This document shows, one piece after another, positions 43,061 to 45,259 of a DNA stretch of 64,000 nt. The translations under genes were made by a program, and so were the position numbers. This DNA comes from Cenarchaeum sp. (GTDB taxonomy: Archaea > Thermoproteota > Nitrososphaeria > Nitrososphaerales > Nitrosopumilaceae). Every line of letters starts with the position of its first letter. The stretch's first letter is position 1. The stretch spans positions 448,001-512,000 of the forward strand of contig OZ243037.1 in the NCBI GenBank assembly GCA_965212015.1. The letters are read 5' to 3'. The notes under the pieces were generated by a model. The model was given only the letters and a program-made list of their open reading frames with translations. It did not search any database and had not been told where the DNA came from.

Positions 43061-43273
43061 ATGGCAATAAGAACAAAAGCGATCAACGGATCCGAATATC
43101 TCTATTACATCTATTCTGCGAATGGCAAAAAAACGGATGTGTATTGCGGGCCATCATCCAAGCCGGAATCAAGAAAAAAGGCGTTAAACTATGAGATCGA
43201 CAATTTGAAGAAACTGGCCACTGAAATATCCAATAAGATTAAATCGATGGAAAAGGAAGTGAAAAACCTGTAA
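43061..43273 (+). CDS. Small basic putative DNA-binding protein
   Basis: INGSEYLY...GKKTDVYCG beta motif plus coiled-coil tail; TAATG overlap with the mod start. Confidence 0.75.
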   Translation: MAIRTKAINGSEYLYYIYSANGKKTDVYCGPSSKPESRKKALNYEIDNLKKLATEISNKIKSMEKEVKNL

Positions 43274-45259
43274 TGAAGCCCAAAGGCAAGCCTAAAATAA
43301 AGTCTCGTAGAAAGCCCCGTGGTATGAGCCGTATGAGTCTCCAAGAGTCTCCAAGAGTCTCCAAGAGTCTCCAAGAGTCTCCAAGAGTCTCATAAGGAGA
43401 CTCGAAAACCCAGTTATGCAAACTGGTCGAAAAACGAATTAATTAATGAAGTCCAAAAACTACGAAAGCGAAAAAAATATGGCCTAGTCTGGGATGAAGA
43501 AAAAACCAAGGAAACTTTTGAGAAAAATGCCCAGAACAAATTACCAATTCTAAAAGAGATTGCCAAAAACTCGATTGGAAGTGATTCTAAGAGGCCAACC
43601 AATATTCTGATTGAGGGTGACAACTATCATGCACTTTCCGTTTTGAACTATACACATAAAGGAAAGATAGATGTTATTTACATTGATCCACCATATAACA
43701 CAGGTGACGAATCATGGAAATATAATAATAATTATGTAGATGGAAACGATGGTTTCAAACACAGTAAATGGATATCATTAATGGATAAAAGATTACGTTT
43801 AGCAAAAAATTTATTAAAAACTGATGGAATAATATGCATAACAATCGATAATCATGAACTTCATAATTTATTACATATTTTAACCGATATTTTTTTTAAT
43901 AAAGAAATCATAACTACTGTGATTGAACATAATTTAAGAGGAAAACGTGGAAATAATTTTGCATTAACTCATGAATATGCAATATGGATCTTAAATGGGA
44001 ATAAAGATCTAATAACTAAGTTACCTGAAATTGGATCTGATGTTAGACGTAATTTACGAAAAACTGGAGGTGATCCTAATAGATCCGATTCACCTTCAAT
44101 GTTTTATGGAATTGAAGTTAATAAAAAAACGTTAGAAATTGTAAATGTTACTTTTCCTTTATCATTAAACGAAAAAATACCCAAACACAAAAATCCCAAA
44201 ACAGAAATGATTTGGCCTATAGATTCTGAAGGTAATGAAAAGCGATGGTATTATGGTCATCGTAGAATATTGAAATCTGCCAAAATAAAAGAAGTATATG
44301 CAAAGAAAATTAAAAATATTATACAAATACATTATTATATTTCAGGAAAACCAATTAGACGTAAATCTATTTGGACAGGACCTAAATATGATGCAAGTAC
44401 ATATGGAACAGAATTACTTACTGAAATTATTGGTGAAAATGATTTTCCATATCCAAAAAGCATTCATGCAGTTAAAGATTGTATATCTTCAATGAATAAT
44501 AATAAAAATGCAGTAATTCTAGATTTTTTTGCTGGCTCTGGAACTACTGGTCATGCAGTTTTAGAATTAAACAAGGAAGATAATGGAAATAGACAATTTA
44601 TATTATGTACAAACAATGAAAATAAGATTTGTACTGAGATATGTTATCCTAGAATAAAAAAAGTGATTAAAGGATATTCATTTAATGGAACTTATAAAAA
44701 ATGTCTCTATGAACAAAAATTTACAATGACTGTTCTAAAAAATATCGATCTCATATTTGAGAAAATCAATGAAATACAGAATAAGAAAGAATATGATGAT
44801 TTTGAAATAAAAATAGAATATCAAAATATTAAATTATACGGGAAGATGTATATTAATGACAAAAAAGATAGCCTTGAAGGAAATCTTAAATATTTTAAAA
44901 CTGATTTTATAGATTGGGATCATCACACAAAACAGAACAAAAAGAAACTTGTAGAACAATCTACCGAAATGCTGTGTCTAAAAGAGAATTGTTTTGAACT
45001 AGTGAAAAGCAGTAGTAAGTTCAAAGTATTCAAAAACAATCAGAAATGGCTCGGAGTAGTTTATCATCGAACCGGCGTCGAACCCTTCAAGATATGGCTA
45101 AAGTCTAACAAATCAACGACGAAGATTAACACCTACGTGTTTCCTCCCAAGGACGAGGTTAATGATGATGAATTTCATGATGTGATAAAATCAGTGAATT
45201 TGAAGCCCATACCATCGGTCATACTCAATGTGTATAGGAGAATATTCGATCATGTTTAG
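43273..45259 (+). CDS. mod: Type III R-M methyltransferase Mod (amino-MTase, beta class), currently out of frame at a 10-bp repeat tract
   Basis: KKYGLVW, NILIEGDNY, IDPPYNTG, FPYPKS, LDFFAGSGTT; ATGs 43273, 43324 and 43333 are in a different frame from the body. Confidence 0.9.
43335..43391 (+). repeat. (GAGTCTCCAA)5 plus GAGTCTC simple sequence repeat in the 5' coding region of mod
   Basis: Perfect units at 43335, 43345, 43355, 43365, 43375. Confidence 0.98.

Follow-up and report, generated by a model that had tools for sequence, protein, structure and literature searches.

The DNA analysed here (the window) is a stretch of 64,000 nucleotides (nt) from Cenarchaeum sp. (contig OZ243037.1, positions 448,001 to 512,000 of the forward strand), whose genome is a single closed 1.76-Mb contig of 99.74% completeness that carries an archaeal amoA gene. 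On the plus strand of the window lies an operon made up of a small open reading frame (ORF), a type III methyltransferase gene (mod) and a type III restriction gene (res). The 5' coding region of mod contains a perfect decanucleotide repeat, (GAGTCTCCAA)x5.7, at positions 43335-43391 (Tandem Repeats Finder: period 10, 100% matches), which is the proposed ON/OFF switch of the system. The GAGTCTCCAA unit was found at this locus only in the whole genome, which holds two perfect decamer tracts of at least three copies by the same program.

The small ORF (43061-43273, plus strand, 70 amino acids (aa)) is the first gene of the operon, and its Pfam matches are weak and lie under the curated cut-offs. 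A TATA-like box, TTTAATAA (43032-43039, plus strand), is located 21 nt before its ATG at 43061; because this is the usual archaeal spacing from TATA box to start, the box is a candidate promoter of a leaderless operon transcript. The stop codon of the small ORF overlaps the mod start at 43273 in the sequence TAATG, the two codons sharing an A. From this ATG the frame runs through a leader of 20 further codons (MKPKGKPKIKSRRKPRGMSRM; 43273-43334, plus strand) as far as the tract, then through the repeat, and in the five-unit allele of the assembly it is closed after 40 aa by a TAA at 43393-43395. Two more in-frame ATGs, at 43324 and 43333, also precede the tract. The Mod body is open in the next frame (43337-45259), where the first ATG, GTG or TTG is the TTG at 43643. 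Among alleles of 0-12 units generated by script, those with 1, 4, 7 or 10 units read into the Mod body and encode proteins of 648, 658, 668 and 678 aa, respectively; all others end after 30-79 aa. The coupling by TAATG, the 40-aa frame, the lack of a start in the Mod frame before TTG 43643 and the frame arithmetic (full-length Mod with 1, 4 or 7 units, 658 aa with 4, and OFF with 5 or 6) had been laid out in the original prediction, whose description of tract and frames is exact in every detail.

The ten codons of a three-unit cycle include no stop, which leaves the tract open in all three frames. As in contingency loci built on simple sequence repeats (SSRs), the repeat is perfect and lies within an ORF, its unit is not divisible by three and is present in at least three copies, and the number of units sets the frame. 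The last partial unit and the first codons past the tract form a hairpin, GAGTCTC-ATAAG-GAGACTC (43385-43403, plus strand; minimum-free-energy fold of single-stranded DNA, z = -2.6). Its 7-bp stem pairs GAGTCTC with its reverse complement GAGACTC five bases downstream, and any unit of the repeat can pair with the downstream arm.

The Mod body (43397-45259, plus strand, 620 aa) has the sequence of a beta-class N6-adenine methyltransferase, with the landmarks ETRKPSYANWSK...NILIEGDNY...DPPY...FAGSGTT. The 640-aa frame read from 43337 matches Pfam N6_N4_Mtase (PF01555) at 5.6e-27 over residues 111-427, with motif IV (DPPY) ahead of motif I (FxGxG), the order of type III enzymes. Its identification as a type III methyltransferase, already made in the original prediction, is upheld by the PADLOC model MTase_III (E 2.8e-72) and by relatives in the PDB (7dsu, 6k0w and 4zcf) that include Mbo45V (Mod chain) and EcoP15I Mod. 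The body aligns end to end with 11 homologues at 48-62% identity and keeps every invariant column, among them IEGDN.H, DPPY and FAGSGTT. The public protein collection holds only a truncated 492-aa call (P0001) for this gene.

The res gene (45228-47417, plus strand, 729 aa) overlaps the end of mod by 32 nt and matches Pfam ResIII (3.2e-23), with a weak Helicase_C match beside it, and PADLOC REase_III (4.2e-20). Residues 12-724 align at 42% identity with a 746-aa Res that adjoins a Mod homologue in a bacterial genome, and Res is therefore full length. In this pairwise alignment a C-terminal FYVD...LFD-x-K is conserved; by our own reading, rather than by a profile match, its D...D-x-K is a putative nuclease motif of the PD-(D/E)xK type. 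Next to mod there is, as in type III systems, a helicase-like ATPase of superfamily 2 with a putative C-terminal nuclease.

The homologues of Mod start where the body starts in the window and do not contain the tract. The 11 homologues begin 0-13 residues before the ETRKPSY of the window, and three relatives from Nitrososphaerota start with M-(A/V)-x-(N/D)-(G/R)-K-...-IDY-..-WSK right after a small ORF, without a repeat. DNA similarity between the relatives and the window starts at 43414, just past the tract. The leader and tract have therefore been added in this lineage, between a start codon and an N-terminus that is otherwise ordinary. None of eight genome-contig loci with Mod relatives has a tract at the Mod start, and a DNA search of 61 related genomes returned only Mod genes of about 71-72% identity, none with a tract. 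In the closest archaeal Mod homologue among genome contigs (L007:708-2613, 68% identity), Mod is split into ORFs of 298 and 351 aa and Res is fragmented too, through either a broken system or assembly errors.

Unit number in public sequencing runs

Unit numbers were estimated from the Logan contigs (k = 31) of four public runs (X1-X4), in a comparison that reaches window position 43704. The tract is present in contigs of three of these runs (X1-X3). Because 31-mers meet a 57-nt repeat of period 10, the contigs break in the tract: the flank contig ends 30 nt into it, the exit contig begins 30 nt before its end, and a loop of a 33-mer and a 37-mer unitig lies between them. A script check gave the multiplicities expected for a tract of N units plus 7 nt, with k-mers occurring N-3 times in the 33-mer unitig and N-2 times in the 37-mer unitig.

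Run X1, with flanks identical to the window, has a flank depth of 411-499 and depths of 1200 and 1700 in the 33-mer and 37-mer unitigs, which gives a mean N of 5.4-6.1; the assembly allele has five units. Runs X2 and X3 come from another study and contain a second strain. Over the 765 nt upstream, this strain has 21 single-nucleotide polymorphisms (SNPs) relative to the window, plus a 1-nt insertion; over the 333 nt downstream it has only one SNP. In X2 the depths are 264 (flank), 130 (33-mer) and 347 (37-mer), with a mean N of 3.3-3.6; in X3 they are 492-500, 270 and 700, with a mean N of 3.4-3.6. The unit number differs between the strains, and this result is robust, because with five units the depth of the 33-mer unitig would be two or more times that of the flank, and the observed depth is half that of the flank.

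The depth ratio of the two loop unitigs is independent of local coverage. It was 2.67 in X2 and 2.59 in X3, where exactly four units would give 2.0 and exactly three would give infinity. The simplest reading is that the second strain is a mixture of 3-unit OFF and 4-unit ON alleles and that the first strain has 5-6 units. Unit numbers are probably mixed within a single sample, to judge only from these non-integer k-mer multiplicities.

Three SNPs separate the strains between positions 43200 and 43700, and all three are synonymous in the proposed frames: 43231 in the small ORF, 43317 in the leader frame of ATG 43273 (and non-synonymous in the other two frames) and 43618 in the Mod body. This small sample agrees with translation of the small ORF, the leader and Mod.

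Run X4 has a depth of about 4x at the tract and no contig across it. A 35x contig (42600-43028) ends at 43028, and coverage is about 4x from 43026 onward; most cells in this sample seem to lack the cassette of small ORF, mod and res, or to have something else in its place.

A search of metagenome contigs with the three-unit pattern gave one match, at L023:1308-1367, where GAGTCTCCAA x7 stands in an intergenic spacer beside a second 10-nt tandem repeat, CTTTTTACTA x6. This contig is virus-like and unrelated to the locus, and we took the match for a probable coincidence.

Other type III systems of the genome

Tandem Repeats Finder recovered 11 non-triplet tracts with at least three copies and at least 95% matches from the whole genome, two of them decamers. 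Five methyltransferase genes of the genome match PF01555; three of them adjoin ResIII genes and constitute three type III systems. In all three (3/3), the leading gene of the operon has a perfect non-triplet SSR at its 5' end, and this genome-wide recurrence is the strongest new argument for a switch.

System 2 (G000:C1:1436000-1443700, minus strand), recognised like system 3 by its PF01555 and ResIII neighbours, has res ahead of mod. Its decamer tract, (TCCCCTCTCA)x4.3 (G000:C1:1443105-1443147, minus strand; L024:694-3687), follows codon 13 of the gene for a 997-aa Res and is in frame. Alleles of 1, 4 and 7 units encode a Res of 987, 997 and 1007 aa, other numbers give 21-53 aa, and the genome holds four units (ON). 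System 3 (about 1690000-1692700; L025) has mod (604 aa) followed by res. Its (ACAG)10 tract (GTCT x10.5 on the plus strand; G000:C1:1692653-1692694, minus strand) is in a short upstream frame about 160 nt before the Mod start. We rejected this tract as a simple frame switch, the upstream ATG never being fused to Mod at 1-15 units. The DNA of system 3 was found in none of four same-genus genomes.

The operon in the window (system 1) and system 2 have related sequences in front of their tracts. The 42 nt abutting the two tracts are identical at 30 of 42 positions without gaps, the sole match of at least 27/42 in 3.53 million positions on both strands; the next best two have 26. The small ORFs ahead of the two systems share 12 of their last 24 residues (50%, E 2e-5). 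The repeat units are unrelated and the proteins behind them differ (Mod vs Res). Both leader and repeat are absent from the nearest homologue of the system 2 Res (86% identity), and the conserved body of this family starts with RTPE.NP.LNNPY, after the repeat. Among 401 genomes of the class the leader motif occurs in one, the present genome, in two places, and in none of the other 400.

Given the leader homology, the small-ORF homology and the module-free closest homologues, we infer that in this lineage a module of small-ORF tail, short leader and all-frame-open decamer has been placed ahead of the leading genes of two type III operons that are unrelated to each other. The copy in system 2 is now in frame and that in system 1 out of frame, which looks like a set of independent switches, and the shared leader-repeat cassette suggests that such switches are movable between genes.

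The four same-genus genomes (G001-G004) have 16-24 PF01555 matches each. On the 5' side of the methyltransferase genes in 30 of their loci (L038-L067, 112.6 kb) lie several perfect repeats with non-triplet units and runs of 9-12 G or C, for example a 16-mer x4 in L053 and a decamer x3.8 in L039; we claim no enrichment. The L039 decamer was rejected as a coding switch, its unit containing TAG.

Proposed phase variation and alternative explanations

We propose that translation would begin at ATG 43273, or at the in-frame ATG 43324 or 43333, and pass through the repeat, which has no stop in any frame. It is well established that bacterial contingency loci gain and lose units through slipped-strand mispairing; here, such gain or loss would shift the frame, because the unit is 10 nt long. 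With 1, 4, 7 or 10 units the ribosome would continue into the Mod body (ON), and with other numbers it would meet a stop within 30-79 codons (OFF), the assembled genome representing a five-unit OFF allele. Type III Res depends on Mod to find its target DNA, and because of this the OFF state would silence methylation and restriction together and the ON state would restore both. In a published study, PolB and PolD, the replicative polymerases of archaea, underwent slippage in vitro at a hairpin with direct repeats (PMC4134008), and the hairpin at the end of the present tract may favour misalignment and slippage. Switching would presumably be frequent and reversible and the ON allele translated and active; the benefit could be bet-hedging against viruses, with or without gene regulation. 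The end-to-end alignment of Mod and Res with homologues and the synonymous SNPs support genes that appear free of decay. The locus is not filed here as a phasevarion.

On this evidence we consider it likely, at a probability of roughly 0.7, that mod is governed by a hypermutable decanucleotide repeat in its 5' coding region and that the assembly has caught an ON/OFF switch in the OFF state. The original prediction of a phase-variable switch is supported by the anatomy, the intact genes, the frame arithmetic, a unit number that differs between strains and the recurrence of the design in the genome; a within-sample mixture is probable.

Several observations weigh against a switch. Every contig breaks inside the tract and none spans it; the contig depths look rounded, and the single-copy depth derived from the loop is off the flank depth by up to about 20%. 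The alleles of the assembly and of X1 (5, perhaps 6) are both OFF, an ON allele is inferred for the second strain, and X2 and X3, being from one study, may be one population. The k-mer estimate presumes that no other DNA bears the decamer, and the unrelated contig L023 does carry GAGTCTCCAA; foreign DNA of this kind could inflate both loop unitigs and mimic a non-integer mean. The genome and metagenome collections yielded no close relative in which a different number of units could be counted, and a flank-tract-flank pattern allowing 1-7 units had 0 matches in metagenome contigs. Finally, an intact Res with Mod switching on in an unmethylated genome carries a risk of self-restriction.

The chief alternative is a dead-end frameshift: expansion of the tract or insertion of the module would have inactivated mod, the operon would be a remnant decaying in a defence island, and any variation in length would be neutral drift of a repeat in a pseudogene. 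Such a history would fit the OFF allele of the assembly and the mean of 5.4-6.1 in X1, which is also at OFF numbers, as well as the transposase fragments that flank the cassette, the truncated 492-aa P0001 as its only entry in the public protein set and the depths in X4, where about 4x for the cassette against 35x for the DNA at its left means that many cells are without it. We nevertheless regard it as unlikely. Neither the 620 codons of Mod nor the 729 of Res contain a second lesion, and the SNPs against the second strain are synonymous; the mean of about 3.5 units in that strain implies common 4-unit ON alleles; and the leader-plus-decamer design is in frame in system 2. That 5' SSRs occur in 3/3 type III systems is hard to explain by independent accidents.

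The remaining explanations are each less probable than a dead-end frameshift. Tandem repeats are error-prone in assembly, and the X1 depths do not fit exactly five units; if the true tract had four or seven, mod would be constitutive and have an odd, repetitive N-terminus. Such a miscount is very improbable, given that the X1 mean (5.4-6.1) fits neither four nor seven, that the second-strain mean (3.3-3.6) is non-integer and that the genome is a single closed contig of 99.74% completeness. We think it equally doubtful that Mod is expressed with no change in the DNA, by +1 ribosomal frameshifting or transcriptional slippage in the tract or as a shorter protein from TTG 43643. With the tract open in all frames, a frameshift anywhere in its 57 nt would rescue Mod, but no slippery heptamer or homopolymer run was noticed on reading the tract. 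Starting at TTG 43643 would remove about 82 conserved residues, including the invariant IEGDN.H kept in 11/11 homologues, and none of the examined homologues starts there. The tract might also be a protein-binding array on one face of the helix, read by the small-ORF product or another regulator, with an incidental effect on frame; the period is close to one helical turn, and a small conserved ORF stands ahead of both decamer-bearing operons. We give this little credence, since the two tracts have unrelated units despite homologous leaders and both are in coding sequence just past a start codon, free of stops in all frames. The latter properties count against an array because a coding switch requires them and an array does not.

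Read as a switch, the locus works like the phase-variable mod genes of bacteria (modA of Haemophilus influenzae and Neisseria, modH of Helicobacter pylori and modM of Moraxella), in which a type III mod is followed by res and a perfect SSR in the 5' part of the ORF, with a unit that is not a multiple of three, sets the frame by its number. The tract also reaches the at least three units applied to units of at least 3 nt by Atack et al. 2018, and some bacteria of that survey have, like the present genome, several such systems (PMC5909438). It differs from them in host domain, unit length, placement in an added leader and the shared cassette. Unlike the bacterial switches, this one has an archaeal host and a 10-nt unit; its tract is in an N-terminal extension absent from relatives, and leader and tract are common to the res of another system. 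Switching and regulon are established for the bacterial genes, whereas at the present locus switching is proposed.

Another similar gene is a type III mod of Shiga toxin-producing Escherichia coli with a heptanucleotide CAGCGAC repeat, which also has an unusually long unit near the mod start and a candidate start codon ahead of it. For that gene, fragment-length analysis revealed tract lengths that vary within strains, and the methylome was analysed by single-molecule real-time sequencing, in contrast to the contig k-mer depths used here (PMC5909438). The proteins themselves resemble EcoP15I (PDB 4zcf) in the beta-class order of DPPY and FxGxG in Mod, a similarity that is distant (E 1.3e-24), and in the N-terminal helicase motifs and C-terminal D...D-x-K of Res. 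At 729 aa, Res is shorter than the three matching PADLOC REase_III profiles, which have 809-898 positions.

A switch of this kind is apparently undescribed in archaea. The original prediction knew of no archaeal case, and our literature searches agree: no described archaeal SSR-switched restriction-modification (R-M) gene was found, as judged mainly by titles and the beginnings of abstracts. Atack et al. 2018 searched REBASE mod genes for repeats with units of 1-9 nt; the word "archaea" has 0 occurrences in the main text, and the supplementary lists (662 mod genes) could hold archaeal entries (PMC5909438). By term search, two surveys of archaeal R-M systems leave phase variation in archaea untreated, one naming it among earlier bacterial surveys and the other having it in the reference list only (PMC10609329, PMC11033074). 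No archaeal phase-variable case was found in 12 of the 21 passages with the word "archaea" in a 2026 review of prokaryotic epigenetics (PMC13076061), and a 2025 review of phase variation treats distribution across archaeal phylogenies as future work (PMC11868660).

Candidate poly-G promoter switches, other repeats and the genomic island

Outside the window, seven giant genes (1971-3861 aa; G000:C1 92298, 391493, 398039, 414636, 820315, 1006351 and 1017602) share the context TTTTATAAGCA-N2-3-G(10-13)-N6-7-ATGCAAAA, with 23-25 nt from the TATA-like box to the ATG and a signal-peptide-like N-terminus, MQK(S/T)(M/L)(L/M)... A poly-G run of variable length in this position is a candidate promoter-spacer switch of leaderless archaeal genes. 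In bacteria, promoter-spacer switches consist of poly-G or poly-C between the -35 and -10 elements, as in surface-protein genes of Neisseria and Bordetella. The seven loci are similar in having G10-13 between TATA-like box and ATG, and they differ in that the promoter would be archaeal, with a TATA box and probably a leaderless mRNA. The genome has eight G/C runs of at least 11 where roughly one is expected, the latter being a rough estimate and not a shuffled control. The poly-G promoter motif occurs in 0/4 same-genus genomes. For 18 archaeal genomes, statistics of homopolymers have been published (PMC2831843).

We suggest tentatively, and at slightly less than even odds, that these elements make up a whole phasome, like those of host-adapted bacteria, of three SSR-bearing type III systems, two of them driven by a portable cassette grafted on mod and res, and seven genes for giant secreted proteins in which a G10-13 run sets the distance from TATA box to start codon. 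Such a phasome would mean slipped-strand switching of virus defence and cell surface in Archaea, including an archaeal-specific promoter version. Phase variation by simple repeats is textbook bacterial bet-hedging, studied mostly in pathogens. If an ammonia oxidiser, free-living or symbiotic, does have several R-M systems that are switched by repeats, the device would be bound neither to bacteria nor to pathogenesis. It would also provide a concrete, testable instance of heterogeneous virus defence, and possibly of heterogeneous epigenetic state, within populations of an archaeal group of global importance, and searches confined to units of 1-9 nt would miss part of the phenomenon.

More tandem repeats, perfect or nearly so, whose units measure 17, 19, 27, 29, 32, 34 and 48 nt and several of which have the core GGCCTTGGTGACCTGTAC, are located at G000:C1 91513, 324716, 649325, 756222, 1162593, 1163234, 1501488, 910625 and 743660. 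The gene for a 1110-aa SNF2/ResIII helicase with a NOV_C (DUF3883) domain is preceded, at a distance of about 100 nt, by a 19-nt x12.2 tract, and the gene for an AAA_14/DUF4143 ATPase starts directly next to a 34-nt x10.5 tract.

The R-M cassette of the window stands in an island with a G+C content of 31-40% (40-48 kb), compared with about 51-55% around it and about 51% for the genome. The same island encodes an AbiEi/AbiEii toxin-antitoxin pair (40146-41710, plus strand; profile matches), and the cassette is bordered by two transposase fragments recognised by sequence match, one IS6/IS1-like (42219-42767, minus strand) and one of the IS5 family (47838-48422, plus strand). The locus is best explained as a horizontally acquired type III R-M operon (small ORF, mod and res) in an ammonia-oxidising archaeon. 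No tRNA was found within the window, and an Rfam scan gave no match above the gathering score, a sub-threshold mir-306 hit (25 bits vs 52) being attributable to chance. At the edge of the island, a 62-nt x3.4 tandem repeat is directly upstream of the AbiEi gene (39921-40165), and another low-GC stretch (28-34 kb) contains a 71-nt x2.9 repeat with a palindromic CTTTACAAAAACTTTGTAAAG (29322-29527).

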